Part shown: positions 1-14,161 of the stretch, in pieces | How the letters are laid out: the number at the start of each line of letters is the position of its first letter | Position numbering within the stretch: position 1 is the stretch's first letter | IMG/VR virus record: IMGVR_UViG_3300045391_005622 | Span: 1-14,161 of that record | Length of the DNA: 14,161 nt | Direction: 5' to 3' (one strand) | Source of the DNA: a virus | Notes under the pieces: generated by a model | The model's database searches: none | The model's input: only the letters and a program-made list of their open reading frames with translations | What the model was told of the DNA's origin: nothing | Made by a program: the position numbers and the translations under genes

Positions 1-54
1 TTACTATTGCACCATTGGCCAATTATTTGCACCTTTGAATTGTCAGTAAACAAA
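1..54. repeat. Terminal direct repeat, copy 1 (circular-closure overlap)
   Basis: ttactattgcaccattggccaattatttgcacctttgaattgtcagtaaacaaa is identical to 14108-14161. It contains the perfect palindrome ATTGGCCAAT (14-23), flanked by two TTGCACC copies (7-13 and 27-33). Confidence 0.9.
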
Positions 55-70
55 CCAAAAAATCTCAACC

Positions 71-325
71 ATGTTACACACTCCATCCAGTGCCATGCGC
101 ACTATCGCGGCCCAATGCGGCCAACTAATCAGAGAAAAAAAATATCACAAGGAACAGGCGCTGTATTACCACAAGATGTTCAATGCCAGCGTACCAAAAG
201 AGGATCTAAGCGCTGATATCATTATTTTGCATGAACTAACCCCGCTGCAGGAATTTTGGCAGCAGATGGCACAGCACCACATTACAGCCCTGCACCTGGT
301 AGAGAACCAAATAAACGCACTTTGA
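71..325 (+). CDS. Hypothetical small protein (84 aa), early module
   Basis: ATG-initiated ORF with helical-looking, balanced composition, followed by an intrinsic terminator at 354-375. Preferred over the overlapping 7..216 ORF, which has an odd His/Cys/Arg-rich composition and starts inside the terminal repeat. Confidence 0.55.
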   Translation: MLHTPSSAMRTIAAQCGQLIREKKYHKEQALYYHKMFNASVPKEDLSADIIILHELTPLQEFWQQMAQHHITALHLVENQINAL

Positions 326-353
326 TCACGCACGCAGCCGTTTCAACGGCACA

Positions 354-375
354 GGGGCTAATTTTAGCCCCTTTT
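354..375 (+). terminator. Rho-independent terminator after ORF 71-325
   Basis: ggggctaa/ttagcccc stem (354-371) followed by TTTT (372-375). Confidence 0.6.
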
Positions 376-449
376 CGCTTTTCTCCCAAAAGACGGGCAG
401 TTGCCCACATTACAAACCAGGCCCGTAAAAGGGCTGCAAATCGTTTACA

Positions 450-701
450 ATGGCTACAGACAAAGACCGGTTTTTATTGATATTGGTAGAGGATCTGCCA
501 TTGCCGGCAAACTCAATTGAGTGCAAAAAAGTCGGCACTGCATTAAATGGCCCTGAAGCTGAAATGATCGAAGTGCTGGCAGTGCTGATGGCACATAGTG
601 AAAAATTTCGCAGGCTGTTCAATGCAGCCGGCATAATGGCAAACAAAATACGGCGCGGTGAAATGCCCACACCTGGCCATTTTCAGGTAAACGATAATTA
701 A
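450..701 (+). CDS. Hypothetical protein (83 aa), early module
   Basis: ATG ORF with normal composition. No recognisable motif. Confidence 0.6.
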   Translation: MATDKDRFLLILVEDLPLPANSIECKKVGTALNGPEAEMIEVLAVLMAHSEKFRRLFNAAGIMANKIRRGEMPTPGHFQVNDN

Positions 702-725
702 CCAGTAACCCCAAAAACAAGCAAT

Positions 726-908
726 ATGACAGTAGCTATGCTAATTGAAAACCTGCAGGCGTTGCCCCGGCAGGATCTTCCAGTAATGGTTTTTGATGAA
801 CTGTTCAACACTTACCAGCATGTAGTGCTGGCAGAGATTGACACGCTACCAACCCCGCAGGGTGAAGTAACAGCGATCCGATTATTCACCAATGACAAAG
901 ACATTTAA
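726..908 (+). CDS. Hypothetical small protein (60 aa), paralog of 1129-1359
   Basis: N-terminus MTVAMLIENLQALPRQDLPVMV resembles MTVTEYIKALQALPGDLQVIIA of ORF 1129-1359. The next ORF starts 2 nt after its stop. Confidence 0.65.
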   Translation: MTVAMLIENLQALPRQDLPVMVFDELFNTYQHVVLAEIDTLPTPQGEVTAIRLFTNDKDI

Positions 909-909
909 C

Positions 910-1098
910 ATGGAAAAGGAAAAGATACCTGCAGCCCTGCAGGATGAAATTAACCGGGCTTTTGAAGTCGCAAAGCAATCGGTTTCCCTGCTCTACAGCC
1001 GGATGGATCTGGCAGATATTCCCAACGGGGGAATGGCCATGATCCTGAAAGACCTGGTATTGCAGCACCAGGAAGTGCAGCGGCACATGGCAGGGTGA
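910..1098 (+). CDS. Hypothetical small protein (62 aa)
   Basis: The track ORF begins at 892, inside the previous gene. The ATG at 910 directly follows the TAA at 906-908, so 910 is the likelier start. Helical composition. Confidence 0.6.
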   Translation: MEKEKIPAALQDEINRAFEVAKQSVSLLYSRMDLADIPNGGMAMILKDLVLQHQEVQRHMAG

Positions 1099-1128
1099 AT
1101 ATTTGCCCGGTTTTTCCGTTCTTGCCTT

Positions 1129-1359
1129 ATGACCGTGACAGAGTATATAAAGGCGCTGCAAGCCCTGCCAGGCGATCTGCAGGTGATAATAGCAGCCGGA
1201 ACGATTGACAGCTACACACAGTTTAAACCGGCTGGCCATCCACATACCATGTGCGTTGTGACCAGGACACAGGACGGGAAAACAATCCTGGAAAGCCAGT
1301 TAACAGGCCATCCCCTGCAGAAAGATTGCCCACAATTCGACGCGGTACGGCTGGCCTAA
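1129..1359 (+). CDS. Hypothetical small protein (76 aa), paralog of 726-908
   Basis: Shares the MTV..(I/Y)I..LQALP..DL.V motif with ORF 726-908. Followed by the bidirectional terminator. Confidence 0.7.
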   Translation: MTVTEYIKALQALPGDLQVIIAAGTIDSYTQFKPAGHPHTMCVVTRTQDGKTILESQLTGHPLQKDCPQFDAVRLA

Positions 1360-1385
1360 CCTGGTACTACCGCGAAGCGTGACAC

Positions 1386-1418
1386 AAAAAAAGCCGTGCA
1401 GATCCTGCACGGCTTTTT
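1386..1418. terminator. Bidirectional intrinsic terminator between convergent genes
   Basis: A7 run (1386-1392), stem gccgtgcag (1393-1401), loop atc, stem ctgcacggc (1405-1413), T5 (1414-1418). Lies between the + ORF ending at 1359 and the - ORF ending at 1435. Confidence 0.8.
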
Positions 1419-1434
1419 CATGTTAACCTATAGG

Positions 1435-1593
1435 TTAATTTTTCTTGCTAAAGATGCCTACCAGGGCTTGCAAAACGATGCCGGCAAAAGACAGCCATCT
1501 TTTTATTTTTGCCTCTTTCTTTACTTCGGTTTCGGTGCATTCGTTCACTGGTGCAGCTGGTACATTTTCGGGTAAAATTTGCTCGTTTGTCAT
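1435..1593 (-). CDS. Small tail-anchored membrane protein (52 aa); the only minus-strand gene
   Basis: The track ORF is 1435..1722 (-), but I use the internal ATG (complement of 1591-1593). Product MTNEQILPENVPAAPVNECTETEVKKEAKIKRWLSFAGIVLQALVGIFSKKN has a C-terminal hydrophobic helix followed by a basic tail. On the - strand a TAnnTTTG-type box (TACTTTTG, complement of 1623-1630) lies about 30 nt upstream. Confidence 0.45.
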   Translation of the reverse strand: MTNEQILPENVPAAPVNECTETEVKKEAKIKRWLSFAGIVLQALVGIFSKKN

Positions 1594-1816
1594 AGGGTAA
1601 TTTTTAACTGTTAGGAATGCATCAAAAGTAATTTGCAGCCCTGGCACCTGGTAGTTTATTCGATGGCTGGCGGGTTTTTGTCGCCTAGATATGCACATTC
1701 GTGGATATTCAAAAACGATCAATTTCAGAACGGGCTTTACATTCGGGCCATGATTTTACCGTTCAATCCATTTATTGTAAAGGAATTGCACCAGTGTACC
1801 TGGTTTAAAATATATA

Positions 1817-1846
1817 AGCCCTGCTATAGAAATAGCGGGGCTTTTT
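1817..1846 (+). terminator. Strong terminator-like hairpin in the rep-upstream intergenic region
   Basis: 11-bp stem agccctgctat / atagcggggct with one G-U pair, loop agaa, then T5 (1842-1846). No convincing + strand gene lies upstream of it. Confidence 0.5.
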
Positions 1847-1940
1847 ATGATTTTACCTTGGCACTTTTTACGATGCCATCCGGCACAAATGTACCTCTTT
1901 GCCCTCTCCCCTGGGTGCATTCACTCAAAATTAATTCGCA

Positions 1941-3041
1941 GTGCTAAAAGTGCTGCAGATACCACACAGCCCATATAAGCGCCGCAAGCCGGCCGCAATT
2001 CTCACCCCTGGTTCACAAAAATGGGTAGACAGGCAAGCCCCGCTGAAGGCCTCTAAATGGCGCTCAAAGGAAGAGTTTGCCAGGATGACCGGCCGCGCGG
2101 ATCTCCTTGATAAGTTAGCACAACTATCGCAACCCGCGCTGGGGGCCAGTTCCAGCAACGGATCGGAAAAGGAATTTCTGCGGAAAAGAGCCAAACGGAA
2201 ATATTTCACGCAGTACCTGGCAGGCCAGCTGGCCATGCTCGAAAGCCCGTTAAAAAAAGCCTATCGCAATTCACTGCATTGCTGCAGTGAATTAAAGCAG
2301 CACGAAGACAAGATAACCGCGAAGTATTGTAAAAACCGCTGGTGCATGGTATGCAATTCTATACGCACGGCTAAAAATATCAATGGGTATGAGCCGGAAT
2401 TTAAAAAGCTGTTAGATCCTCAATTCCTTACGCTGACCGTTCCCAACGTCAAAAAAGATGAACTACGGGAAACAATCCGGTGCATGAAAAAGACCTGGCA
2501 GGCCGTATATAAAAAGTTCCACCGGCAATGCCAGAAACTAAAAATTAAGCTGGTTGGGGTGCAAAAATTGGAATGCACCTATAATGCAGTAGAGGACACA
2601 TATCACCCTCATTTTCACTTCATTATAGATGGAAAGCCGATTGCATCGGCAATACATGATGAATGGTTGGCCCGGTTTCCATCGGCTAGGCGTGCAGCGC
2701 AAGATCTTCGCCCTGCGGATCTCAATTCAATGAAGGAAATGTTTAAATATTTTACCAAAGTTGTTACCACCAGTGGCAACACCAGGCGGATCTATATTCC
2801 TGCAATGGACGTAATTTTTCAAGCCATGCAGGGCTTTAGAGTTTTTCAACCGTTTGGCATAAAGGCGGTGAATGATGAACCGGACGACCTGGAAGCAATT
2901 ACCCTGGAAGAAAAAGTAGATCAGCTTGTCTGGTGGAAATGGACGGGTAACGATTGGCACGACACAGCAACCGGCAAACCATTAACCGGCTTTGAACGTG
3001 TAACGGTATATGATGAACTCTTTAAAAATGCAGCTTTGTAG
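1941..3041 (+). CDS. rep: Rolling-circle replication initiator, pC194/pUB110 (Rep_1) type HUH endonuclease
   Basis: All family motifs are visible: Cys cluster YCKNRWCMVCNSIR, motif I FLTLTVPN, HUH motif YHPHFHFII, and the catalytic E-x3-Y motif MKEMFKYFTK. The ORF opens at GTG 1941. ATG 2085 (MTGRADLL...) is an equally plausible or better start. Confidence 0.9.
   Translation: MLKVLQIPHSPYKRRKPAAILTPGSQKWVDRQAPLKASKWRSKEEFARMTGRADLLDKLAQLSQPALGASSSNGSEKEFLRKRAKRKYFTQYLAGQLAMLESPLKKAYRNSLHCCSELKQHEDKITAKYCKNRWCMVCNSIRTAKNINGYEPEFKKLLDPQFLTLTVPNVKKDELRETIRCMKKTWQAVYKKFHRQCQKLKIKLVGVQKLECTYNAVEDTYHPHFHFIIDGKPIASAIHDEWLARFPSARRAAQDLRPADLNSMKEMFKYFTKVVTTSGNTRRIYIPAMDVIFQAMQGFRVFQPFGIKAVNDEPDDLEAITLEEKVDQLVWWKWTGNDWHDTATGKPLTGFERVTVYDELFKNAAL
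2106..2112 (+). promoter_or_regulatory. Candidate double-strand-origin nick site (CTTGATA)
   Basis: This is the only CTTGATA I found in the window. It matches the CTTG/ATA nick core of pC194, pUB110 and phiX174 origins. It lies in the 5' part of rep, between short inverted repeats gcgcgg (2095-2100) and ccgcgc (2143-2148). A 7-mer alone is expected about once by chance. Confidence 0.3.
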
Positions 3042-3112
3042 CGCTAGCTGTCTCTAGTCGGTAATTTCTAACGGTAATAAACAACCTAAATTTTAAATTC
3101 AATTATAATTTT

Positions 3113-3364
3113 ATGGCAACACTAACAAATGAAGAGGTAAAAAATGTTTTAAACGATCACCACACTGGCCTGGTAATACTTATGCCTGGCAACCCAGATA
3201 ATTGCCCGGTCGGTGGAATGATTGTAGGTGCACAGGTTCAATTTCAATTTGGAATGAACGGCTGCTATAGGTGCATGATGTATGCGATACGCGGCATAAT
3301 GGAAAAAGAACCGGCATTGAAAAAATTAGTCATTGATGCACTGGCAACAAATTACAACCCATGA
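3113..3364 (+). CDS. Hypothetical protein (83 aa), low-GC trio member 1
   Basis: ATG ORF whose stop overlaps the next start (ATGA at 3361-3364). The region is AT-rich. Confidence 0.6.
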   Translation: MATLTNEEVKNVLNDHHTGLVILMPGNPDNCPVGGMIVGAQVQFQFGMNGCYRCMMYAIRGIMEKEPALKKLVIDALATNYNP

Positions 3365-3597
3365 AAAAGATAATCCCAAATAAAATTGTTTTTAGTCTGG
3401 TGCAACCTGATGAGCTAAACGTTGAAGTAAAAATAACAATGCACGGGCCGGAAATTGACATTGCATCAATGATTTTTTCAGCAATGCAAATTGATAAGAC
3501 TGTAAAATATTTGCTGATAAAAACTGTAGTTGGTTTTTGTGCACTTAATAAAATTTCAATGAGTAACCTAGAAAAAGAATTCAACAAAACTCAATAG
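3361..3597 (+). CDS. Hypothetical protein (78 aa), low-GC trio member 2
   Basis: Translationally coupled to the previous ORF by an ATGA overlap. The next ORF starts 3 nt after its stop. Confidence 0.6.
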   Translation: MKKIIPNKIVFSLVQPDELNVEVKITMHGPEIDIASMIFSAMQIDKTVKYLLIKTVVGFCALNKISMSNLEKEFNKTQ

Positions 3598-3599
3598 CT

Positions 3600-3833
3600 A
3601 TGTATACCGTAAAAATTATTGCCAACACAGTTTCAGAAAACCTGGAAAGACTGATCGGCTTTTACATTGATGAAGTGCAGGCATCAATACCTGGTGCAGT
3701 GATGACTTTTCAATACCAGGCATTGAACGGCATAAATGAAACAATCTATTCTTGCATGATAACTGTTTGCACGTCGATCATTGATATGCACTTTGCAGAA
3801 AAAAAGCCAGGGGCCAGTATTGCTGGATCGTAA
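3600..3833 (+). CDS. Hypothetical protein (77 aa), low-GC trio member 3
   Basis: Tightly packed ATG ORF, similar in size and in strand-turn-helix pattern to the two preceding ORFs. Confidence 0.6.
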   Translation: MYTVKIIANTVSENLERLIGFYIDEVQASIPGAVMTFQYQALNGINETIYSCMITVCTSIIDMHFAEKKPGASIAGS

Positions 3834-3840
3834 AACGTTC

Positions 3841-3848
3841 TATATTTG
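3841..3848 (+). promoter_or_regulatory. Bacteroidota-type -7 promoter box candidate (TATATTTG = TAnnTTTG)
   Basis: Exact match to the TAnnTTTG consensus, immediately downstream of the trio stop and upstream of the hairpin cluster. I saw no clear -33 TTTG. Confidence 0.3.
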
Positions 3849-3870
3849 CACCAGCCGGTAAGAAAAGGAC

Positions 3871-3896
3871 GCGTGCTCTGCAGGGATGCAACACGC
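3871..3896 (+). other. Hairpin 1 of the structured non-coding region
   Basis: gcgtg...cacgc outer stem with an inner tgca/tgca stem and ggga loop. Confidence 0.4.
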
Positions 3897-3926
3897 CAGC
3901 GATATTGCCGGGGCTGGGTGACCATT

Positions 3927-3950
3927 GTTACCAGGGTGTAACCTGGTAAC
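3927..3950 (+). other. Hairpin 2 of the structured non-coding region
   Basis: Perfect 9-bp stem gttaccagg / cctggtaac with 6-nt loop gtgtaa. Confidence 0.6.
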
Positions 3951-3968
3951 GTCTGTAAAAGAATAGAA

Positions 3969-3997
3969 CGGACTGCAATTGCAGCCCGTTTTTTTTT
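3969..3997 (+). terminator. Strong rho-independent terminator (+)
   Basis: Stem cgg-a-ctgcaattgcag-c-ccg followed by T9 (3989-3997). Confidence 0.8.
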
Positions 3998-4007
3998 GCC
4001 CCTAAAC

Positions 4008-4034
4008 GAAAAACCCCTGCAGATCCTGCAGGGG
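4008..4034 (-). terminator. Minus-strand-oriented intrinsic terminator hairpin
   Basis: Perfect stem cccctgcag / ctgcagggg (4014-4034) with loop atc. The A-run (4009-4013) is on the + strand upstream side, so it reads as a T-run only on the - strand. Shares the 13-nt core tgcagatcctgca with the 1393-1413 hairpin. Confidence 0.5.
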
Positions 4035-4229
4035 TAGCAAATGTTATCTGCATAGACCGGGCCAAATAGGCTGCTTTTGCCCAATTTTCAACCGCGTTGC
4101 CCGGCTTCGCATTGGCAACCTACATTTTTATTCTCCAAAAAACAAGCGTTTTGCCGTTGAACGGCATAAATTTTTTATTGTGCTATTGTAATAAAAATCT
4201 AAAGAAAGCGTTCATTCACCTGTTAGATC

Positions 4230-4238
4230 AATCCAATA
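4230..4238 (+). promoter_or_regulatory. AATCCAATA upstream motif, copy 1
   Basis: 9-mer 13 nt upstream of the TTG start at 4251. Followed by aaaccaatat, which also occurs upstream of 8746. Confidence 0.4.
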
Positions 4239-4250
4239 AACCAATATTTT

Positions 4251-4700
4251 TTGAAAACCGAGAAACTTCTCCTCTACGGCGCTGCCGGCATTGCAGTATT
4301 TGCGATCTTTTCAAAAGCCCGCGCGCTGGGTAACCTGGTATTTACACCAGGTACAGTTTCCGCAATGGGTTTTACAAATGGAGTTCCCACCGCTGATGTG
4401 ACATTGATCGCACAAAATACCAGTACCACTGGCCTTACCATTAACAGCTTTGCCGGCAACGTCTTTTCAAATAATATTCTAATCGGCAATATTTTCAGCT
4501 TCGCCCCGGTGCATATTTCCGGCAATTCCCAAACACCTATCAACGTATCAATACAGTTTAAACCCCTTGGCGTTGTAACTGACTTAATCAGCGCATGGAA
4601 TACAAATAATTTTTCACAGGATATCACAGTAGAGGGCTTTGCAAATGTGCTAGGGCTGCAGCTGCCAATTAATTTACGTTTTAAGTTTGGCACCCCTTAA
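4251..4700 (+). CDS. N-terminally membrane-anchored beta-rich structural protein (149 aa)
   Basis: TTG start. N-terminal helix KLLLYGAAGIAVFAIFSKAR is followed by an alternating beta-strand pattern (LVFTPGTVSAMGF..ADVTLIAQNTS..LTINSFAGNVF) that loosely resembles LEA_2/WHy-type beta-sandwiches. That fold assignment is tentative. Confidence 0.7.
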   Translation: MKTEKLLLYGAAGIAVFAIFSKARALGNLVFTPGTVSAMGFTNGVPTADVTLIAQNTSTTGLTINSFAGNVFSNNILIGNIFSFAPVHISGNSQTPINVSIQFKPLGVVTDLISAWNTNNFSQDITVEGFANVLGLQLPINLRFKFGTP

Positions 4701-4711
4701 ACCTGCAAGGC

Positions 4712-6454
4712 ATGACAGTAACAAAAGAAAAATTATTGGACTTGCTGCCACCTTATACGGATGAATGGATCAAGGTGAAGGAGAAACAACAGGTAAAGGA
4801 TATTATAAAATTAATTTGTGAAAGGCATTTGGATTTTTGCAGTGATTACGATCTTATCTGCAGTGCTTTTGTTGGTGCCAGCTTGCAGGATACATGCAAC
4901 AACCTGTACGACTTTTGCGCGAAGAACTTGCATTATAAGGAAGAAAGCGAAGAAGTACAAACAGTTGGTAACCCTGCTTCAATTATTGCCAGGGGTGCCA
5001 CCGGAATTGATTGTAAATCCTACGCTCTTTTCATTGGCGGTTGCCTGGATGCAATACAAAGGGAGACAGGTAAAAAAATCGATTGGCATTACTGTTTTGC
5101 ATCTTACGATCCGATGCAAACAACCCCTTACCATGTGTTTGTTGTTGTTGAAACGGACAAGGGCTTGATGTATGTTGATCCAACGCCTGGCAGCGAAGAC
5201 AAGGAACCGGTATGGATAGTGAATAGGAAAGTGACCGGTCAAAAAATCAAAGGGTTAGTTTTAGGCAATAGGGAAAAGGAAGTGATCAGCGGTGCCAGCG
5301 CAGGCGGCAACGGGTTTTTGATGCCGGCCCCGGCTTGGTACCCTGACTATCTTCCAAAATTTTATAACAATGGTGACGGTTTCAGGCTGTACCCTCTCAA
5401 TGCCGTCCCGAAATATACGCAGGATGATGTTTTGGACGTGTGCTTATACTACCAAACATTGATCGGTTTTAATCGGGTAGACTGGCAAAACGCAAGGTCT
5501 GCAGCCTGGAAGTATACAGACGGCACCGGCGGCGCTGAAATCTGGGTAAAGTCGGCATTGAAAGCTGATGCCAATGGTGATGGCAGCGGGAATTTTGCAC
5601 GGATATCGCCCAACGGGCAATCAATAGACGGTGCATTTTATTCCCAACTGCAGGCCAGGTATATTTTCAGAGAAAAGAGCACAAAGCCCTGGCTATCCTC
5701 AATGCAGGCAAAGGGCGGCGGGATCGATTTAATGACAATACCAATGGCTAATGACGTTGAAGTGCCGCGGCCGTCCTGGTATCCTGCACACCTGCCATCA
5801 TTGTTTTTTTCAGCTGGTAACCCTGGCCAGTACGCGGCCGGTCATTTGGATACAAAGCCGAAAATTAGAAACGGCAAGGCGTCAACGTGGGGGCCATACA
5901 CGGTAACCCCTGCAGATGTGGCTAACTACATGGTATATGCGCAGCCATTGATTTACGCAGGTTCAACACCTTACCCGTTGAACTGGTATATTAATGACGA
6001 TGTAAACGGGGCAATGGCCAGCTATTTTAAAATTACGCTGGGTTTCACAGAGGGGCATACTAATTCGCAAATGCAGGTTAATGTGGGCATCACTGGAAAT
6101 ATTTTGGAACAACCGGTATTAGATGCCAACCCTTACACCAGCGGTTTTACAAGGACGTTAGAAGACATTGTGAGCGCGGCAATAAATTTCTTTGCCGGAA
6201 AGATACCAGGCGGCACAAAGATGGTGCAGGCGGCTTATGCTGCAGGCCAGATAAAAGCCGGCGAATATATTACCGGCGGTGCAATGCCACCAGGTGCATT
6301 TTCTGCAGCGGTTTTCCGTGAAGCTGATGCACTGGTAACACAGATTGCAACGGATCAGAAAAATAAAAAAACTTTTCTTTTTGTCCTGGTGGCAGCTGGC
6401 CTGTTAGGCTGGTATTACCGCAATGACCTGAAGAAAATGGAATTTACTTTATAA
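4712..6454 (+). CDS. Large virion-type protein (580 aa): N-terminal transglutaminase-like Cys-His-Asp domain, duplicated middle domain, C-terminal TM anchor
   Basis: GIDCKSYALFIGGCL (Cys101, codon 5012-5014), PYHVFVVVE (His141, 5132-5134) and LMYVDPT (Asp156, 5177-5179) match the transglutaminase-core pattern G.C..(F/Y)A...H.(W/F).E....G....DPT. The motif P.P.WYP..LP..F occurs twice (aa ~205 and ~352). C-terminus is KKNKKTFLFVLVAAGLLGWYY. Confidence 0.8.
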   Translation: MTVTKEKLLDLLPPYTDEWIKVKEKQQVKDIIKLICERHLDFCSDYDLICSAFVGASLQDTCNNLYDFCAKNLHYKEESEEVQTVGNPASIIARGATGIDCKSYALFIGGCLDAIQRETGKKIDWHYCFASYDPMQTTPYHVFVVVETDKGLMYVDPTPGSEDKEPVWIVNRKVTGQKIKGLVLGNREKEVISGASAGGNGFLMPAPAWYPDYLPKFYNNGDGFRLYPLNAVPKYTQDDVLDVCLYYQTLIGFNRVDWQNARSAAWKYTDGTGGAEIWVKSALKADANGDGSGNFARISPNGQSIDGAFYSQLQARYIFREKSTKPWLSSMQAKGGGIDLMTIPMANDVEVPRPSWYPAHLPSLFFSAGNPGQYAAGHLDTKPKIRNGKASTWGPYTVTPADVANYMVYAQPLIYAGSTPYPLNWYINDDVNGAMASYFKITLGFTEGHTNSQMQVNVGITGNILEQPVLDANPYTSGFTRTLEDIVSAAINFFAGKIPGGTKMVQAAYAAGQIKAGEYITGGAMPPGAFSAAVFREADALVTQIATDQKNKKTFLFVLVAAGLLGWYYRNDLKKMEFTL

Positions 6455-6463
6455 TTTTTATTC

Positions 6464-6472
6464 AATCCAATA
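6464..6472 (+). promoter_or_regulatory. AATCCAATA upstream motif, copy 2
   Basis: 9-mer ending 3 nt upstream of ATG 6476. Confidence 0.4.
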
Positions 6473-6475
6473 TCT

Positions 6476-7222: not shown

Positions 7223-7231
7223 AATAACTCT

Positions 7232-7825: not shown

Positions 7826-7872
7826 TAAGTAAAAAACCAGGTAATAATTCTAAACCATATTACACAACTACA

Positions 7873-7986
7873 ATGGCAAAGACAGTAAAACCAAAAACAC
7901 CGGCAACCGATGCACCTGCAGGCTATGATCACGAAAGCGGCGCACCCAAACCAGTGAAAGACGTTCCTGCAGGTTATGAAGAGTAA
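7873..7986 (+). CDS. Possible mini-ORF (37 aa), not in the supplied track
   Basis: Translated by hand as MAKTVKPKTPATDAPAGYDHESGAPKPVKDVPAGYEE. It fills an otherwise empty 223-bp gap. It contains two PAGY repeats, each encoded across a CCTGCAGG octamer. Confidence 0.3.
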   Translation: MAKTVKPKTPATDAPAGYDHESGAPKPVKDVPAGYEE

Positions 7987-8048
7987 CCGCAAAAAAATCA
8001 GTTAACCCGCTAGCTGCGGACATTTTTAAAAATTCAATATTCAATCAA

Positions 8049-8672
8049 ATGGCTAAAAAGAAAAAGTCACACAAGCGCAGAAAAGTTTCTGGCCTGGGTG
8101 CAATGCTCAATCCAAAAAGCCCATTGGTAAAACTCGCAGCTATTGCCGGCGGTTACCTGATGGCAGACACGATCAACGACAATTTAAAAAAGCTGGTGCC
8201 AGATTCATTGACAAAGCCCACAGCGGCAACGGCAACAACCCCGGCAAAGCCTGCAACCTTATCAGCTGACACACTCGATCAGATTATGATCGCTGGTGAA
8301 GTTGGCCTGGGTGCATTGCTGATGCTGAAGGGCAAACCGTCCCTGGTGAAAGACATTGCCGGCGGCGTGCTTGCTGGTGCAGGTCTGAAACTGGCCCTGG
8401 TATCATTCGATATAATTAAACCTGCAGCGGTTACCGGTTACCAACGTGTACCAGTGATCGGCGGCTATCAAAAAGTACCTGTTATTGGCAACGTGCCAGC
8501 GCAGCTGCAGGGAACAGTAGCCAGCAAGCCAGCGCAGCTGCAGGGCTACCGTGTGAACGGTTACAATAACCAGGGCAGCGGCGCTGTAATGGGTTCATTG
8601 TTTACCACTGCAGACGCGGCCAATGGTACAGGGTCAGGCCTGGCACATGGTAATAGCGGTTATATGAACTAA
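8049..8672 (+). CDS. Membrane-associated structural protein (207 aa) with internal peptide repeats
   Basis: Basic N-terminus MAKKKKSHKRRKVSGLG resembles HTRRKVSGSG of ORF 7232. Has hydrophobic segments. Repeats are GYQRVPVIG/GYQKVPVIG and PAQLQG x2. Confidence 0.8.
   Translation: MAKKKKSHKRRKVSGLGAMLNPKSPLVKLAAIAGGYLMADTINDNLKKLVPDSLTKPTAATATTPAKPATLSADTLDQIMIAGEVGLGALLMLKGKPSLVKDIAGGVLAGAGLKLALVSFDIIKPAAVTGYQRVPVIGGYQKVPVIGNVPAQLQGTVASKPAQLQGYRVNGYNNQGSGAVMGSLFTTADAANGTGSGLAHGNSGYMN
8495..8545 (+). repeat. 18-bp exact direct repeat pair inside the CDS (gccagcgcagctgcaggg at 8495-8512 and 8528-8545)
   Basis: Read directly from the sequence. In-frame with a 33-nt period, and encodes the two PAQLQG copies. 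Confidence 0.85.
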
Positions 8673-8704
8673 CCAGGTCAACAGCCTCGGAATTGCTAAA
8701 GAAA

Positions 8705-8713
8705 AATCCAATA
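8705..8713 (+). promoter_or_regulatory. AATCCAATA upstream motif, copy 3 (extended form GCTAAAGAAAAATCCAATA...CAAAAG)
   Basis: Lies in the 73-nt leader of the capsid candidate. The extended motif is shared with copies at 10912-10940 and 13294-13325. Confidence 0.45.
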
Positions 8714-8745
8714 TCCAAAAGAGCAACCATAAAAACCAATATAAA

Positions 8746-9456
8746 ATGAACAACACAAACAATGTGTCAGCTCGTATGAGTTTTGACATTGCACGCAACG
8801 TACTGTACAAATCCTGGATCGGATCATTCGGCGGCGATTCTAAGGCCTGCTGGGACTGGGTAGACGGCCGCAAACTTTCACAAAGCGAAGTAAGGTGCGA
8901 AGTAAAGCTGAACACCACCAATACAAATTTCACCTTTGGTGTAATACAACAGCAGCCCAACAGCAGCGCTGTTACATTCCCAACTGAACGCAGGCTGGCC
9001 ATGCAGGATAGCTTGATCGTTGCAGAGTATGGAATATTTGTAGGCGTTGCTGCCAGTGACACTGACAGTAACTGGCTTGCGAAGACTTACGGCAACCCCA
9101 ATGTATTTACCACCGCTGGTTCATTTGCAGCCATTGACGGCGGTTTCTACTCGTCTGGTGGCTTCCAGATGACCGTGAACAATGATACAATCATTCCTTA
9201 CCGTGGCTTGCTTAACCATTACTACAGACCGCAAACGCAGCAGATTGCAGCAATTGCAGTTGGTGCAGTAGGTGACCAGCTGCGCGGCGCTGAAGATGGC
9301 ATGATCACACAGGAACCAAATCTTCTGCTGATCGGATCTAAAAATTATGTTCCGCAAATCGTGTTGCCAGCTGCACTTGCTGCAGTTACTCCCAACACAC
9401 GCGCGGTGCTGATTTTCCGTGGCGTTCTTGCACAAAACAGCACTGTTATCAATTAA
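8746..9456 (+). CDS. Major capsid protein candidate (236 aa, beta-rich, jelly-roll-like)
   Basis: No TM segments and an alternating beta-strand pattern. It has the longest leader carrying the conserved motif and is followed by a terminator hairpin. The function is inferred, not recognised by homology. Confidence 0.55.
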   Translation: MNNTNNVSARMSFDIARNVLYKSWIGSFGGDSKACWDWVDGRKLSQSEVRCEVKLNTTNTNFTFGVIQQQPNSSAVTFPTERRLAMQDSLIVAEYGIFVGVAASDTDSNWLAKTYGNPNVFTTAGSFAAIDGGFYSSGGFQMTVNNDTIIPYRGLLNHYYRPQTQQIAAIAVGAVGDQLRGAEDGMITQEPNLLLIGSKNYVPQIVLPAALAAVTPNTRAVLIFRGVLAQNSTVIN

Positions 9457-9489
9457 CAGTAGCGGGATCTGGATCTACATTCTTACATG

Positions 9490-9530
9490 AAAAACCCCGG
9501 CAACCGGTAACACAGCCGGCCCGGGGCTTT
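9490..9530 (+). terminator. Terminator or attenuator hairpin after the capsid candidate
   Basis: A5, then ccccgg (9495-9500) ... ccgggg (9521-9526) with an inner ccgg/ccgg stem, then cttt. Confidence 0.5.
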
Positions 9531-9547
9531 CACAAACTATTAAACCA

Positions 9548-10054
9548 ATGGACAGAATAATATTAGTCGCTGATGAGCCCCGCAATTGCTCTGAACTGGT
9601 AGAAGTGCCAGTGACAACCACAGGGCTTTTTCGGATCAACTTTCCCGATAATCAGCAGCTGCGCTCTATGCGTACACAAGATATCCGTATACAGGGTATA
9701 CGGTTAATCACACCAGACGTGGCCAGCTTTGGCCCGATCACTGGTTACCGCACCGCACCGGTTGCAGAGTTGAAAAAATGTTTCCTGGTGCTGTATTGCG
9801 AAGGATGGGAGAAAGCCCATTACATACCGCTGCAGGTGCTCAATGATACCAATATGCCATCCGGCACAGCTGCACACCGTTACAGTGCAACAAAATTTGG
9901 AAGTTGGCGCAATGTGGATTGGGGTAAGTCTTATATCCTTTACAGCAATGGCACCGGTGGCAGTGATGTTAGCGGCGGCAATTATGAATTTCTTTTTGAT
10001 GTAGAGTACACAAAATTAGACGCTGAAGGCAAGGAGATAATAGGGCCATCTTAA
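9548..10054 (+). CDS. Second beta-rich capsid protein candidate (168 aa; single jelly-roll size, minor capsid or penton)
   Basis: About eight predicted beta segments (LFRINFP, IRIQGIRLI, CFLVLYCEG, HYIPLQVL, SYILY, YEFLFDVEY). No TM segments. Confidence 0.5.
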   Translation: MDRIILVADEPRNCSELVEVPVTTTGLFRINFPDNQQLRSMRTQDIRIQGIRLITPDVASFGPITGYRTAPVAELKKCFLVLYCEGWEKAHYIPLQVLNDTNMPSGTAAHRYSATKFGSWRNVDWGKSYILYSNGTGGSDVSGGNYEFLFDVEYTKLDAEGKEIIGPS

Positions 10055-10105
10055 CCGGCGGCCCCTCTCAAAAAACGCGATATCTAATTTTTTAAAGCAA
10101 TAGTT

Positions 10106-10891
10106 ATGGCTGGGCAATCTGTACAATTTTTTGGTAGAGCGGCCGTGTTAAACGCATACCGGGCCAGGGGCATTGATACCTGGGGGCTTTTTGATAAAAA
10201 GCAATTTATTAACGCTGGCCAGGATGAAAACGATCTATCTGCATTCCTGGAAATGTTAGAACCTGGTGGATCGCAAAGCGTTTACACGTTGAAGGTATAC
10301 CGCGATGTAGATGACATTGATTTATTAACCGATCGCACTGAATGCAATGGATCTTTCAATTTCAAATTGTTTCAGGCAATGGCCCCGGCTTCACTTGCAC
10401 CGGCAACGGTTGGCAATCCTTCACCTGGTGCCAGGTATGCTGATCCGATTTACCAAAAGATACACGGCATAATAGATCAGGAAGTAAGCGCAGCCATTGA
10501 AAAGCGGTTAAGCGGCAAAAGCCAGGATGAAGAGGAAGAGAAAGAACAATCCTGGAATGAAGTTATAATGGGTTATGTCAACAGCCCGGAAAAACTCAAC
10601 GCAGTATTGCCGGTGATACAGTCAACATTGCAGACACTAGGCGCAATTTTTCGCCCTGGTGGCGTTGCACCTGCAGCGGTTGGCATACCAGTAAGCCTGG
10701 CAGGTACGCAGCCAGTGCAAAGGGTAGGGGCTGTACAGCAACCTACCAATGATGAGAAGTTAGCCAGGCTGGCAGCTGCACTGGATAAATGGGAAAGCCT
10801 AGATCCTGATGCACTGACAGTAATTGAAAAAATTGTTGCACTTGCGGAAAACGATCCTGGCAAGTACAAGATGGCAAAGAGTTTTTTATAA
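10106..10891 (+). CDS. Hypothetical protein (261 aa), possible scaffold or assembly factor
   Basis: Globular N-terminal domain, Ala/Pro linkers with the repeated motif APATVGNP / APAAVGIP, an acidic patch SQDEEEEKEQ and a helical C-terminus. No TM segments. Confidence 0.7.
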   Translation: MAGQSVQFFGRAAVLNAYRARGIDTWGLFDKKQFINAGQDENDLSAFLEMLEPGGSQSVYTLKVYRDVDDIDLLTDRTECNGSFNFKLFQAMAPASLAPATVGNPSPGARYADPIYQKIHGIIDQEVSAAIEKRLSGKSQDEEEEKEQSWNEVIMGYVNSPEKLNAVLPVIQSTLQTLGAIFRPGGVAPAAVGIPVSLAGTQPVQRVGAVQQPTNDEKLARLAAALDKWESLDPDALTVIEKIVALAENDPGKYKMAKSFL

Positions 10892-10919
10892 ATGTGTCAC
10901 TCGCCTACATGGCTAAAAA

Positions 10920-10928
10920 AATCCAATA
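10920..10928 (+). promoter_or_regulatory. AATCCAATA upstream motif, copy 4 (GCTAAAAAAATCCAATA...CAAAAG)
   Basis: Ends 18 nt upstream of ATG 10947. Confidence 0.45.
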
Positions 10929-10946
10929 CCCGCAAAAGCCGTTGTT

Positions 10947-11771
10947 ATGATTAAAAAATTAATTGCAGTTGATGAAAAGGGCGAACCGGTAAAAAATGCC
11001 GTGTTCACTTTTACGCAAGTGCAAGCAGATGGCAGCACGGGTATTGTTGCAGTAGCTGATGGCGGGCAAAGTGGCGTGGTATCATTCGACACACAAACCG
11101 ATCCCAATTTATTTTCAAGCGATAACCATATAACAGTAGAGGCGCCAGGTTTTTTAAAAAGTGGCGTGGATGCTGATGTTATTGGTGATGCCTGGCAATT
11201 TACAATGGCCAAAAGTGCTTCAATGGTGCCAGCGTTAACGCTGGGTGCATTGGTGGCAGTGGGTGCCGTTGCCATCTACAGGAAAGGCAATAAAAGTAAA
11301 GTAGGTGCATTTAATGCAAAAGATGATTTATTGCCCTGGGTTGTTCCTGCAGCCGTTGTAGTTGGCGGTTATGCATTATATAAAAAATTCTTTGGCAAAA
11401 GCGAAGAGGACAAAGCACGCGATCAGGCGCTAAGTGATGACATTGCAAATGCACAGCAGGAAGAGCCGGCAAGAATGTTAGACAGTGAGATCGCAGCTAC
11501 TGCAAATGCACTGGTAGAAGATCTGACCTATTCACACCCCTTTGGAGACAGCGATCAGCAATTGGACGCGGCACACCAGCTGACAAAGCCAGGCACACTG
11601 GTAGACCTGTTACGATTAATAAAGCAATACGGAAAACACTATATAACATACTTCGGCATTCCTGCAGGCAGTTTCACATTAGAAGAGACAGTAACCCGCA
11701 AATTAGATCGGGAAATCATTGACGAAATAAACCGCTATTACAGAGCGCAAGGCATCAACTTTCAATTTTAA
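10947..11771 (+). CDS. Two-pass membrane protein (274 aa) with an N-terminal Ig/CarboxypepD_reg-like beta domain
   Basis: N-terminus IAVDEKGEPVKNAVFTF...ITVEAPGF resembles carboxypeptidase-regulatory-like beta-sandwiches (tentative). Helices are ALTLGALVAVGAVAIY and LLPWVVPAAVVVGGYALYKKFF. Has a helical C-terminal domain. Confidence 0.8.
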   Translation: MIKKLIAVDEKGEPVKNAVFTFTQVQADGSTGIVAVADGGQSGVVSFDTQTDPNLFSSDNHITVEAPGFLKSGVDADVIGDAWQFTMAKSASMVPALTLGALVAVGAVAIYRKGNKSKVGAFNAKDDLLPWVVPAAVVVGGYALYKKFFGKSEEDKARDQALSDDIANAQQEEPARMLDSEIAATANALVEDLTYSHPFGDSDQQLDAAHQLTKPGTLVDLLRLIKQYGKHYITYFGIPAGSFTLEETVTRKLDREIIDEINRYYRAQGINFQF

Positions 11772-11775
11772 TTCT

Positions 11776-12156
11776 ATGAACCATTGTGATAATAACGGCT
11801 TACAAGTAAAGTACCTGCAAGGCCGTGGCCAGGTGCAAGTGCCTGCAGAGTCAATGCAGGTGGCCAGGGTTTACAATATGTCCGTGCAGACCTATACAAC
11901 AAGCGCGAATGTATTGGTAGAAAGTAATTGTTTTTCATTCATGTTTACCAACCTGGGAGACACAATAGCCAGGGTAAACGGTATGATCATTTATCCACCG
12001 GCAACACCTGGTGCACAGCTGGGAGACAGCCGATCAATCAGTGCACACGTATTGGATCTGTTTAAAGGAAATATAACTATTGCTTTTGATCCGGGCGGTA
12101 CTGCGCCCCTCGTTGAAGTTGTGCAGCTGTATTACGCTGAACAATACCACCATTAA
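11776..12156 (+). CDS. Small beta-rich structural protein (126 aa), possible vertex or adaptor protein
   Basis: Beta-strand-dominated sequence with no TM segments, located immediately upstream of the spike-like gene. Confidence 0.6.
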   Translation: MNHCDNNGLQVKYLQGRGQVQVPAESMQVARVYNMSVQTYTTSANVLVESNCFSFMFTNLGDTIARVNGMIIYPPATPGAQLGDSRSISAHVLDLFKGNITIAFDPGGTAPLVEVVQLYYAEQYHH

Positions 12157-12171
12157 TAAAAAAATTAATTT

Positions 12172-13269
12172 ATGGGTTTATCTACTGGCTTTGGTGTATC
12201 TCAAAAATCAGAGGCTGGCGGCGGTATGCCGGCGCCCCCCTTCGATCCAACAAGTGCCCACAATGGCACAAGCATTGACGCGGCCGGAAAAGTTGTATTA
12301 GGAAATGATGGCGGTTTATATCCTGGCCCTGGTGCTTTTGAAAATACCAGGGAAATTGATATGAACAGCCATGATTTTTTGATCGGCCGTTCAAATAAAA
12401 CTGCTGCTGGAAATGTAATCATCACAGCAGTTACAACAGAAATTACCGGCCCGGTGCAAGAAGATAGCGCCTATGATTTTTTCCTGGTTGATCAGGAATT
12501 TAACATAGGCGGCAGTCCTGTTTTAATGCGGTTGGCAGTTACAAAAAGTTTTGCCAGCAACAATGCATGCTTTATGAAAATGAATGAAGCGGTTGCAGGG
12601 ATCGACATTCACACATTTAAATTAAACGGTGATTTTGCTTTCGGTAATAATGGCGCCGGCGGTATTATACAATCAGACAGTGGGATACTTTGGATACGGC
12701 CGGATGGTATTACCAGGTACGGACTTTTCAACGGCGGAGATGCAGAAATAAAGCTGGGTGACCTGGAAGGGACTTTCAGCAGTGCAAGGTTAAATATCTT
12801 TTTGGCAACCGGCCGGATGACTTTCACTGATGGCTTTGGTAACGAGTATTTGTCCGCAAGTTCACAGGGCGGCGCTTTGGGTAACGTTACAGATGCAACA
12901 CAGCCAAAATTAGTGGTAAACGGTAGCAGCAACGCGATCAGCGGGTATGTAGGAGACTCTGAAACTTTTAGAGTTGATAACGGTGCAGGCGCTGGCCTTG
13001 AAGCGTTCCTGGGTGATGTGAACAGCGTTGCAAATAGTACACTGCTTATTATTGATGACCGTACAGGCAACCAGCGGGTAACAATCACTGCAGCAAATGG
13101 CCTGGTAGTAAATGCAACCAACGGATATTTTGCACAGACCGGCGGCACGTTAACCAATGGCGCTGCAGCTGCAGCCGGCACGTTGAACAATGCACCCGTA
13201 GCTGGCAACCCCACAAAGTGGATCAAAATACGGGATGCAGGGGTAGACCGTTTTATACCCGCGTGGTAA
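12172..13269 (+). CDS. Spike or receptor-binding protein candidate (365 aa)
   Basis: Gly/Asn/Ala-rich beta-type sequence with a flexible Gly-rich N-terminus. The C-terminal motif GNPTKWIKIRDAGVDRFIPAW is of a kind I recall at the ends of phage fibre or spike proteins. It is the last structural gene before the lysis genes. Confidence 0.6.
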   Translation: MGLSTGFGVSQKSEAGGGMPAPPFDPTSAHNGTSIDAAGKVVLGNDGGLYPGPGAFENTREIDMNSHDFLIGRSNKTAAGNVIITAVTTEITGPVQEDSAYDFFLVDQEFNIGGSPVLMRLAVTKSFASNNACFMKMNEAVAGIDIHTFKLNGDFAFGNNGAGGIIQSDSGILWIRPDGITRYGLFNGGDAEIKLGDLEGTFSSARLNIFLATGRMTFTDGFGNEYLSASSQGGALGNVTDATQPKLVVNGSSNAISGYVGDSETFRVDNGAGAGLEAFLGDVNSVANSTLLIIDDRTGNQRVTITAANGLVVNATNGYFAQTGGTLTNGAAAAAGTLNNAPVAGNPTKWIKIRDAGVDRFIPAW

Positions 13270-13292
13270 AATAAATGCGTCATTCAGCCGTA

Positions 13293-13308
13293 TTGCTAAA
13301 AAAATCCA
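13293..13308 (+). promoter_or_regulatory. Degenerate copy of the upstream motif (TTGCTAAAAAAATCCA, then tttaacgacctCAAAAG)
   Basis: Shares GCTAAAAAAATCCA and the downstream CAAAAG with the copies at 8695 and 10912. Lies 27 nt upstream of ATG 13335. Confidence 0.35.
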
Positions 13309-13334
13309 TTTAACGACCTCAAAAGAAAGTAACC

Positions 13335-13487
13335 ATGCAAACAGAACAGGCATTAAAAATTATTCAACAGCTGCAGGACGTTGCAATACAAAAAGGATTA
13401 TTTGCAAACGTTCAAACAGTTAACCAGGTATCAACAGCAATTGCAACGCTGCAGGCTGCATTATTAGAACGCAATGAAGGCAAGTGA
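13335..13487 (+). CDS. Small helical protein (50 aa), not in the supplied track; overlaps the endolysin start
   Basis: Translated by hand as MQTEQALKIIQQLQDVAIQKGLFANVQTVNQVSTAIATLQAALLERNEGK. Its stop at 13485-13487 overlaps the lysozyme ATG (13474) by 14 nt. No TM segment, so it is not a holin. Confidence 0.5.
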   Translation: MQTEQALKIIQQLQDVAIQKGLFANVQTVNQVSTAIATLQAALLERNEGK

Positions 13488-13992
13488 TAAATATTTAATT
13501 GCTGCAGGTGCATTGGTTGTGCTGATGCTGTTACCTGGTACATTAAACCGTGGAGATATGACAGCAGCAAATTTAATTGCATCGTTTGAGGGCTTTGCAA
13601 GCCATCCGTATTGGGACGTAAATAGATGGTCCTGGGGTTACGGCACCAGGGCGCCAGGGAATTACGGTTATGCGCTGGCCTTTCCTGATCCTGCAGTAAC
13701 GATCACCAGGGCAGAGGCGCTGCAGGAATTGCAAGCGCATGCAGATAGTGATTACAACTACCTGGCACCGATGATCACGCGGCCGCTAAGCGCTGGCCAG
13801 TGGGCGGCGCTGTTATCGTTCTCATACAATACCGGCCAGGGCAATGCAGACAACCTGGTGCCAAATATCAATGCCGGCAATGATCTGGCCCTGGAAAGCC
13901 AATGGAAAAAATATGTATATGCCGGTGGCCAGGTTAATGCCACCCTGCAGAAACGCAGGGAAAAAGAGTGGCAGATCTGGCAAGCCGGTTAA
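13474..13992 (+). CDS. Endolysin, GH24 (T4/lambda-type) lysozyme with an N-terminal signal-anchor (SAR-like)
   Basis: The catalytic region SFEGFASHPYWDVNRWSWGYGT fits the GH24 pattern E-x8-D-x(n)-(S/T)..GYG. It is preceded by the hydrophobic segment YLIAAGALVVLMLL. Confidence 0.85.
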   Translation: MKASDKYLIAAGALVVLMLLPGTLNRGDMTAANLIASFEGFASHPYWDVNRWSWGYGTRAPGNYGYALAFPDPAVTITRAEALQELQAHADSDYNYLAPMITRPLSAGQWAALLSFSYNTGQGNADNLVPNINAGNDLALESQWKKYVYAGGQVNATLQKRREKEWQIWQAG

Positions 13993-14083
13993 CTTCGTTT
14001 CATGGATTAAGGGTGCTATTGTGATCGGTAGGTTTGAGATCCTGCCGGTTTACTGCAAATAAGCAATAGTGCTGAACTTTCAC

Positions 14084-14109: not shown

Positions 14110-14161
14110 ACTATTGCACCATTGGCCAATTATTTGCACCTTTGAATTGTCAGTAAACAAA
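14108..14161. repeat. Terminal direct repeat, copy 2
   Basis: Identical to 1-54. Confidence 0.9.

Follow-up and report, generated by a model that had tools for sequence, protein, structure and literature searches.

Excess of the palindrome CTGCAG beyond codon usage in the genome of a small uncultivated virus, and its switching between avoidance and over-maintenance among relatives

The highly iterated palindromes (HIPs) of cyanobacteria, HIP1 (GCGATCGC) and the alternate HIPs, are GC-rich palindromes that exceed codon-usage expectation in both coding and non-coding DNA (PMC4390886, PMC5861425). Alternate HIPs track cognate orphan methyltransferases (PMC4390886), and HIP1 is more conserved than control words (PMC5861425). 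In this study, we analysed the palindrome CTGCAG in the genome of an uncultivated virus, a stretch of 14,161 nucleotides (IMG/VR record IMGVR_UViG_3300045391_005622, positions 1 to 14,161; hereafter the window), and found that it exceeds codon-usage expectation in coding and non-coding DNA as HIPs do. Like HIPs, different lineages of this virus family have different alternate palindromes of the restriction/methylation type. Unlike HIP1, the window word is a hexamer rather than an octamer, its excess over composition-aware nulls is 1.5-3x as compared to 15-300x, it resides in a 14-kb virus rather than in a cellular genome, several palindromes are affected at once, and the spacing is not periodic. 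Furthermore, unlike HIPs, the same word is completely avoided in sister lineages. The truly unusual parts are this family-wide switching between avoidance and over-maintenance and a complementarity at synonymous sites.

DNA uptake sequences (DUS) and uptake signal sequences (USS) of Neisseria and Pasteurellaceae are non-palindromic words of 9-12 nt recognised by a competence receptor. They resemble CTGCAG here in that a short word recurs across genes in more than one frame and is common to elements of the same host, but nothing in the window suggests uptake. The over-representation of CCWGG in E. coli was reportedly attributed, by Bhagwat & McClelland in 1992 and by Merkl et al. in 1992, to Dcm/Vsr very-short-patch (VSP) repair. 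In Helicobacter pylori, sites of long-resident restriction-modification (R-M) systems are over-represented (PMC4687349). Both cases indicate that a methylation-linked process can raise its own target, and in the window, too, CCWGG is enriched and CCAA/TTGG depleted; unlike the Dcm/Vsr case, however, the transition neighbours of CTGCAG are not depleted. The restriction-site avoidance known from phages and plasmids is strong in this family, in agreement with previous reports (PMC6286503, PMC10359461), whereas CTGCAG, CAGCTG, CGGCCG, and GCCGGC are in excess in the window.

An exact recount gave 46 CTGCAG sites (Table 1), the same number and positions as in an earlier note made from the letters of this DNA alone, where independent and identically distributed (iid) bases predict 2.8; CTGCAG is the top-ranked hexamer by z in the window. 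The recount also agreed on seven copies of CCTGCAGG (starting at 752, 936, 4025, 7136, 7915, 7966, and 11661; iid expectation 0.15), but the core TGCA, put at about 2 per 60 nt by the earlier note, occurs 206 times, or 0.87 per 60 nt (iid expectation 54). The 15-fold excess claimed there holds against base composition (46 versus 2.8), but it is inflated by this naive null and shrinks to 1.5-3-fold under richer ones. Over the whole window, Markov models of order 1, 2, 3, and 4 expect 4.5, 13.8, 18.3, and 31.0 sites; at maximal order, 46 observed sites stand against 31 (z=4.4), and the ratios of close relatives are 1.28-1.59. Shuffling within genes with protein and codon usage kept, the check that had been proposed, does not reproduce the count: 39 sites in coding sequence (CDS) compare with 13.7±3.0, and 0 of 2000 shuffles reached 39. 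A stricter shuffle, which also keeps every dinucleotide including those at junctions, gives 20.0±2.9 (z 6.5). Ordinary composition, that is, low-order context and preferred codons (CTG for 38% of Leu, CAG for 56% of Gln, GCA for 46% of Ala, and NCT codons), lifts the expectation of 2.8 to some 14-31, the value varying with the null. Codon usage and low-order context make up roughly two thirds of the 15-fold excess, and a palindrome-specific bias at synonymous sites adds 1.5-3-fold.

In one scenario, the excess would be a compositional by-product of host-adapted codon usage, codon-pair bias, and neighbour-dependent mutation; no factor would recognise the palindrome, whose look would be incidental to strand-symmetric context biases around GC. 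We regard this scenario as unlikely, albeit by no means negligible. It is favoured by the climb of the expectation to 13.7, 20, and 31 under richer nulls, by the location of almost all sites in two coding phases made of preferred codons, by the use of GCA for 82-85% of Ala after any CT-ending codon whether or not a G follows, by a 30%-GC clade of relatives whose 25-fold iid excess is fully low-order context, and by the stronger enrichment of late structural genes. Calibration on 120 unrelated viral contigs, found via local CTGCAG clusters, points in the same direction, since many of these CTGCAG-rich viruses reach 6-11x iid by codon usage alone. Under the strict null, the 19 of them that were sampled have a median of about 1.2x. 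Similar claims call for caution, as a 15-fold excess over base composition became 1.5-3-fold here once codon usage and context were modelled.

The arrangement of codons argues against a purely compositional origin, because the same codons show opposite tendencies depending on whether they form a palindrome or stand as a direct repeat. Of the 22-23 Leu-Gln pairs of the window, 15 use CTG-CAG (4.7 expected), and of the 18 Gln-Leu pairs, 11 use CAG-CTG (3.8 expected), whereas 1 of the 32 Leu-Leu pairs uses CTG-CTG (4.4 expected); the codon arrangement bias of the five closest relatives is alike. By arrangement, CTG-CAG is at 3.1-3.3x and CAG-CTG at 2.6-2.9x, as compared to 0.23-0.76x for CTG-CTG. 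In unrelated site-rich viruses, by contrast, CTG-CAG and CTG-CTG are raised about equally and this palindrome-versus-direct asymmetry is absent.

The same preference was seen in a contingency test on the context NCX-GCY-G, where X and Y are synonymous third positions of adjacent codons and the result is free of codon-usage marginals. X and Y are complementary 36 times versus 17.8 expected in the window, and 226 times versus 113 expected in the six-genome clade, with all four complementary pairs raised (observed/expected: CTGCAG 130/74, CAGCTG 47/24, CGGCCG 36/12, and CCGCGG 13/3.2) and the same-base and cross-class cells both halved. The excess is present in each of the 6 genomes (1.33-2.02x) and remains at 1.67-1.96x after stratifying by amino acid, genome, and gene, but negative controls with middle dinucleotides unable to form a palindrome give 0.90-1.22x. 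Its strength follows the flanks, with 2.0x for C...G, 1.5-1.8x for one matching flank, and about 1.1-1.25x otherwise. That is, where the protein permits, adjacent codons are chosen so that C-X-G-C-X'-G becomes a perfect palindrome. This twofold complementarity, which outlasts stratification and is absent in control contexts, is difficult to reconcile with composition, as is the enrichment of ORF-free DNA: with every + strand open reading frame (ORF) of at least 30 aa masked, 9 genomes of the clade retain 9 CTGCAG sites versus about 1 expected. The proposal that the signal lies at the DNA level and is no peptide motif thus stands, as a partly DNA-level signal that outlasts shuffles keeping protein, codon usage, and dinucleotides and extends to ORF-free DNA. 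Two other sources were tried and rejected. Heterogeneity of GC content at third codon positions, or avoidance of trinucleotide repeats, does not fit same-base and cross-class cells that are equally depleted and control contexts that are flat. A general enrichment of all palindromes does not fit a class that is unshifted under the strict null, the 16 frame-0 palindromes being at 1.04x overall and GGCGCC even avoided (2 versus 9.1).

The relatives of this virus were collected as homologues of its 580-aa protein, on 12-17-kb contigs from soil, rhizosphere, and fresh water. The closest ones, with 56-70% amino-acid identity over aligned genes, have 37-60 CTGCAG sites, except for L090 with a single one. 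Across close relatives, 12-52% of the window sites are conserved in position, as compared to 10-16% for any hexamer; the sites mostly turn over in position while their number is kept. The intact fraction of CTGCAG is 0.30 versus 0.13 for all hexamers, and its ratio of intact to one-off sites ranks 6 of 322. In 110 genomes in which every hexamer was scored against the strict null, the share of palindromes is raised 7x among strong positive outliers (P=2.5e-12) and 13x among near-absent words (P=8e-58), with pooled counts that ignore shared ancestry. CTGCAG itself has a bimodal distribution, its ratio being 0.42 or less in 31 genomes and 1.4-2.55 in about 22; 24 relatives have no site at all. 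Maximal-order Markov and contingency tests separate three states, namely avoided, neutral (the 30%-GC clade), and enriched (the clade of the window together with several further lineages from soil), with switches of state from one branch to its neighbour. The excess of the 30%-GC clade was rejected as an independent hexamer-level enrichment by the same tests. The most widely avoided palindrome of the family is CAATTG (MfeI/MunI-type), near-absent in 31 relatives with 4-9 copies expected (e.g. L014-L020, L024, L028, L029, L035, L038, L044, and L045).

The states of the four palindromes are independent in each genome. L144 and L041 are enriched in CTGCAG and have CAGCTG 1 time versus 8.8 and 0 times versus 5.3, respectively, and L103 has none of the four palindromes. 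In L134 (Ga0137452_1000272), CCGCGG and CGGCCG occur 38 and 30 times versus 19 and 12 expected, while in the NCX-GCY-G context CCGCCG and CGGCGG are both at 0 versus 13 each, and the 12 non-palindromic C-N-G-C-N-G words together occur 9 times versus 44.5. Sister lineages with similar proteins but zero sites, and states that differ per palindrome, are further points against composition as the cause. They bear likewise on the possibility that the words are binding sites of a viral dimeric DNA-binding protein, such as the basic proteins encoded at 7232-7825 and 8049-8672, that condenses or encapsidates the genome without a packaging motor. Dyad-symmetric sites suit homodimers, the sites spread over the whole genome, and the two highly basic, membrane-anchored proteins are encoded beside the capsid genes. 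However, close relatives keep these proteins while the palindrome differs or is absent (one site in L090, hardly any CAGCTG in L144 and L041, CCGCGG and CGGCCG in L134), several unrelated palindromes are enriched together, and an additive half-site preference would not yield X/Y complementarity. We therefore consider such a protein a very improbable cause.

Pairing of the single strand was also weighed. GC-rich hexamer palindromes might pair in a single-stranded form, either packaged single-stranded DNA (ssDNA) or RNA, and so condense or fold the genome, with restriction avoidance removing some of them per lineage. The genome encodes a rolling-circle initiator of the Rep_1 family, and no packaging ATPase was detected in the window; any C-N-G-C-N-G word is quasi-self-complementary, and the bias perfects such words whichever of the four bases X is; every enriched palindrome is rich in GC; and one intergenic hairpin (4013-4035) has a site in both arms. 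Native genes also fold about 6% more stably than strict-null shuffles (z=-3.5), although this surplus may merely follow from the surplus of palindromes. On the other hand, the class of palindromes is not enriched as a whole and has many GC-rich members that are absent or avoided, sites lie close together no more often than expected and such pairs seldom extend into stems, the hairpin at 4013-4035 being the exception, and a 6-bp helix is weak while pairing needs no palindromy. The sites are randomly placed, with neither regular spacing nor clustering in the window (coefficient of variation of gaps 1.08 versus 0.97 for random placement), although this periodicity test is weak for a 14-kb genome given HIP1 periods of 18-94 kb. 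Moreover, the ssDNA-type C-to-T bias is absent at 4-fold sites, a relative is integrated as double-stranded DNA (dsDNA) in a chromosome, and strong Type II-style avoidance means that a dsDNA stage is exposed. Intrastrand pairing of a packaged ssDNA genome, as suggested by the earlier note, thus fared weakly, and we judge strand pairing to be an improbable cause.

Two further hairpins of the window are terminator-like, with stems around TGCA-type cores and with T/A runs following or flanking. The one at 1388-1418 is AAAAAGCCGTGCAG-att-CTGCACGGCTTTTT, and the one at 3962-3995 has a CTGCAATTGCAG core and then a T run; both cores are one-off variants of CTGCAG.

Several other words also deviate in the window. 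GATC occurs 80 times in CDS versus 54 under the strictest null (z 6.2-6.3), and CCWGG exceeds the strict null in both forms (CCTGG 56 versus 34, CCAGG 35 versus 20), whereas CCAA/TTGG and AGCA belong to the tetramers with the strongest depletion; GGATCC does not occur despite 90 GATC, and AAGCTT is at 0. The excesses of GATC and CCWGG extend throughout the family whatever the CTGCAG state, and across the family no co-variation of that state with GATC, CCWGG, or TGCA excess was found, as these excesses occur in both states. The non-palindromic neighbour CTGGAG/CTCCAG, of Type IIS/IIG style, occurs 0 times versus 5.7 (iid) and 2.6 (order 2) expected. Only CTGCAG and GATC recurred as methylation motifs in every one of the five Bacteroides fragilis-group species (PMC10333322), and CTGCAG methylation is common across Bacteroides.

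Thus, we tentatively favour, at somewhat less than even chances, a restriction/methylation-type pressure imposed by the host, under which host-methylated CTGCAG would be over-maintained in the window clade in a HIP-like manner, because the palindromes are specific and Type II-style, their states are set per word and per lineage, and other palindromes are strongly avoided in the same genomes. A sequence-specific host pressure would act on the double-stranded replicative form, so that each 6-bp palindrome would independently be avoided across the family, where the host range includes cognate restriction, or be neutral or over-maintained. In the window clade, CTGCAG would be over-maintained, and CAGCTG, CGGCCG, and GCCGGC likewise to a lesser degree. 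Most likely, the positive force would be that sites methylated but not cut by the host are beneficial or are favoured by repair. The HIP analogy fits and is reasonable but unproven, and the effect is far weaker than that of HIP1.

Several points weigh against this explanation. We infer the link between CTGCAG and methylation. No methyltransferase is encoded in the window, and no virus-encoded one matching the enriched word was found among 12 relatives, where the sole methyltransferase, in L101, is adenine-specific and has no match to the enriched CCCGGG of that genome. The transition neighbours lack the depletion that an m5C/VSP drive would leave (TTGCAG/CTGCAA 27 versus 29.5, CTGTAG/CTACAG 6 versus 5.0). 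The known PstI-type CTGCAG methyltransferases modify adenine, and no such repair drive is known for adenine. The 4-6 palindromes enriched in one clade would need several host methyltransferases, whereas the C-N-G-C-N'-G form common to the four strongest words is a hint of one structural cause and keeps the rival explanations alive. The effect is small next to HIP1 (1.5-3x against 15-300x), and CTGCAG is not alone in its above-average conservation (rank 33 of 322 abundant hexamers). As the enrichment of the 30%-GC clade vanishes under clean tests, independent recurrence is less wide than raw counts had implied. Finally, the stronger enrichment of late, presumably highly expressed genes would fit a translational cause too. 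More broadly, a positive palindrome-perfecting pressure on restriction/methylation-type hexamers, above all C-N-G-C-N'-G, may act in small Bacteroidota viruses, with words flipping between over-maintained and avoided as hosts change; this generalisation we hold to be doubtful at present.

The positions of the sites bear on several other proposals. All three coding phases are used, as had been proposed, but very unevenly, with 17 CTG-CAG (phase 0), 24 NCT-GCA-G (phase 1), and only 2 xxC-TGC-AGx (phase 2) sites, and the three examples given for the proposal cover two phases. Similarly, the sites at 3878, 4017, and 4026 are indeed intergenic, but 4 of 7 apparently non-coding sites lie in small ORFs conserved in relatives (7916 and 7967 within 7822-7986, and 13371 and 13449 within 13335-13487). 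The octamer CCTGCAGG was rejected as the true unit, since the flanks are independent and palindromic extension at 10 of 46 sites is about what chance gives; on each side, independently of the other, the flanking base is preferably C or G (C 40, G 30, T 13, A 9). The peptide PAQLQG is duplicated at 8490-8545 (ORF 8049-8672), and coded twice by ...cagcgcagCTGCAGgg...; since L168, L170, and L089 conserve this duplication, a protein repeat accounts for some of the positional conservation of CTGCAG.

The site-free stretch is real, with sites at 2282 and 3878 and none between, but the proposal that it marks a recently acquired replication module was not supported. A gap of 1596 nt is unremarkable (P=0.18), and most of it arises because the three small genes at 3113-3833 are without any amino-acid context able to encode CTGCAG (shuffle expectation 0.00). 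The rep gene itself has 2 sites versus 0.64 expected from codon shuffles, of which the one at 1953 is also conserved in relatives. When three complete genomes are pooled, enrichment over the codon null is 2.2x in the early module as compared to 3.35x in the late one (P=0.007); the replication module therefore has the lower enrichment, yet it is not naive.

As its 54-nt terminal direct repeat shows, the window covers one whole circular genome (14,107 nt), with all genes on the + strand. It belongs to an uncultivated, tailless virus that encodes a Rep_1 initiator, a lysozyme, and a candidate jelly-roll capsid protein. This candidate, a protein of 236 aa, is hyper-conserved, with identities of 61% or more in the best 120 of 607 homologues, and its homologues are mostly on 14-17-kb contigs. 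Its AlphaFold model (predicted local distance difference test score, pLDDT, 78) gave weak matches only in a fold search (E ~5e-3, template modelling score, TM, ~0.3), all of them to jelly-roll capsid proteins (SPV1, PRD1, P23-77, PBCV-1/iridovirus, and circovirus), and such weak matches do not decide between an ssDNA and a dsDNA virion. The protein probably serves as major capsid protein in an undescribed family of tailless viruses that have a Rep_1 initiator. No match was found among cultured phages, nor a plasmid match of the capsid candidate. In the 580-aa protein (4712-6454, +), Cys101, His141, and Asp156 are invariant in the pattern DCK...YHVF...D, and some homologues match the Pfam domain Transglut_core (PF01841); the protein is probably associated with the virion, as a cysteine protease or an enzyme of transglutaminase fold, and anchored in a membrane by its C terminus. 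The very basic, membrane-anchored proteins encoded at 7232-7825 and 8049-8672 adjoin the capsid genes.

The host is probably a soil member of Bacteroidota. Relatives fall in bins of metagenome-assembled genomes (MAGs), Rep relatives are on Bacteroides plasmids, and a distant family member is in a 119-kb Chitinophagaceae MAG contig (JAYULK010000059.1; L001 1-20549), where it adjoins bacterial housekeeping genes for a beta-lactamase-family protein, a 2-hydroxyacid dehydrogenase, and an NDH-2-type oxidoreductase in a host flank of 4.5 kb. This gene neighbourhood suggests an integrated prophage and a Bacteroidota host. The L001 copy has a D12 N6-adenine methyltransferase and an AAA_25 protein in place of Rep_1.

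Table 1. Coordinates of CTGCAG sites and other features of the window (phases as defined in the text)
Feature	Position	Strand	Context	Conservation
Terminal direct repeat	1-54 and 14108-14161		exact 54-nt copy	
CTGCAG	245-250		phase 0 (Leu-Gln), ORF 71-325	
CTGCAG (CCTGCAGG)	753-758		phase 0, ORF 726-908	
CTGCAG	929-934		phase 1 (Pro-Ala-Ala), ORF 892-1098	
CTGCAG (CCTGCAGG)	937-942		phase 0, ORF 892-1098	
CTGCAG	1177-1182		phase 0, ORF 1129-1359	L168
CTGCAG	1315-1320		phase 0, ORF 1129-1359	L168, L170, L171
Rep_1 (PF01446) rolling-circle replication initiator gene (rep)	1941-3041	+		
CTGCAG	1953-1958		phase 0, rep	L170, L171, L088
CTGCAG	2282-2287		phase 2 (Cys-Cys-Ser), rep	
Three small low-GC genes	3113-3833	+		
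CTGCAG	3878-3883		intergenic	
Perfect 10-bp hairpin ACCCCTGCAG-atc-CTGCAGGGGT	4013-4035		sites 4017 and 4026 in both arms; intergenic, upstream of structural module	
CTGCAG	4656-4661		phase 0, ORF 4251-4700	
CTGCAG	4858-4863		phase 2, ORF 4712-6454	
CTGCAG	5499-5504		phase 1, ORF 4712-6454	three relatives
CTGCAG	5648-5653		phase 0, ORF 4712-6454	
CTGCAG	5910-5915		phase 1, ORF 4712-6454	
CTGCAG	6240-6245		phase 1, ORF 4712-6454	
CTGCAG	6303-6308		phase 1, ORF 4712-6454	
CTGCAG	6792-6797		phase 1, ORF 6476-7222	
CTGCAG	6990-6995		phase 1, ORF 6476-7222	
CTGCAG (CCTGCAGG)	7137-7142		phase 1, ORF 6476-7222	
CTGCAG	7148-7153		phase 0, ORF 6476-7222	
CTGCAG	7310-7315		phase 0, ORF 7232-7825	
CTGCAG	7698-7703		phase 1, ORF 7232-7825	
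CTGCAG	7761-7766		phase 1, ORF 7232-7825	
CTGCAG (CCTGCAGG)	7916-7921		phase 1 (Pro-Ala-Gly), small conserved ORF 7822-7986	
CTGCAG (CCTGCAGG)	7967-7972		phase 1 (Pro-Ala-Gly), small ORF 7822-7986	
CTGCAG	8422-8427		phase 1, ORF 8049-8672	
CTGCAG	8505-8510		phase 0, PAQLQG repeat copy 1, ORF 8049-8672	conserved
CTGCAG	8538-8543		phase 0, PAQLQG repeat copy 2, ORF 8049-8672	conserved
CTGCAG	8608-8613		phase 1, ORF 8049-8672	
Putative jelly-roll capsid gene	8746-9456	+	236-aa product	
CTGCAG	9380-9385		phase 1, putative jelly-roll capsid gene	
CTGCAG	9830-9835		phase 0, ORF 9548-10054	
CTGCAG	10671-10676		phase 1, ORF 10106-10891	
CTGCAG	11347-11352		phase 1, ORF 10947-11771	
CTGCAG (CCTGCAGG)	11662-11667		phase 1, ORF 10947-11771	
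CTGCAG	11843-11848		phase 1, ORF 11776-12156	
CTGCAG	13088-13093		phase 1, ORF 12172-13269	
CTGCAGCTGCAG, abutting sites 13163 and 13169, also creating CAGCTG	13163-13174		phase 1, ORF 12172-13269	
CTGCAG	13371-13376		phase 0 (Leu-Gln), small ORF 13335-13487	
CTGCAG	13449-13454		phase 0 (Leu-Gln), small ORF 13335-13487	
Phage lysozyme gene	13474-13992			
CTGCAG	13502-13507		phase 1, lysozyme gene	three relatives
CTGCAG	13691-13696		phase 1, lysozyme gene	
CTGCAG	13720-13725		phase 0, lysozyme gene	
CTGCAG	13945-13950		phase 0, lysozyme gene	

Phages are expected to shed short palindromes, but here one family shows both extremes for one word, set at synonymous sites. If a palindrome-perfecting pressure does act in these viruses, it would be a viral, multi-word counterpart of the cyanobacterial HIPs, and many host-methylatable sites would be advantageous or repair-driven, for example by self-marking against a defence system or by titrating a host methyltransferase. 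Should the positive state be tied to methylation by the host, the 12-17-kb genomes of this family would provide a compact natural system for asking why HIPs exist, a question open for about 30 years. In addition, the palindrome states could read out the R-M repertoire of the host and thereby aid the host assignment of uncultivated viruses.

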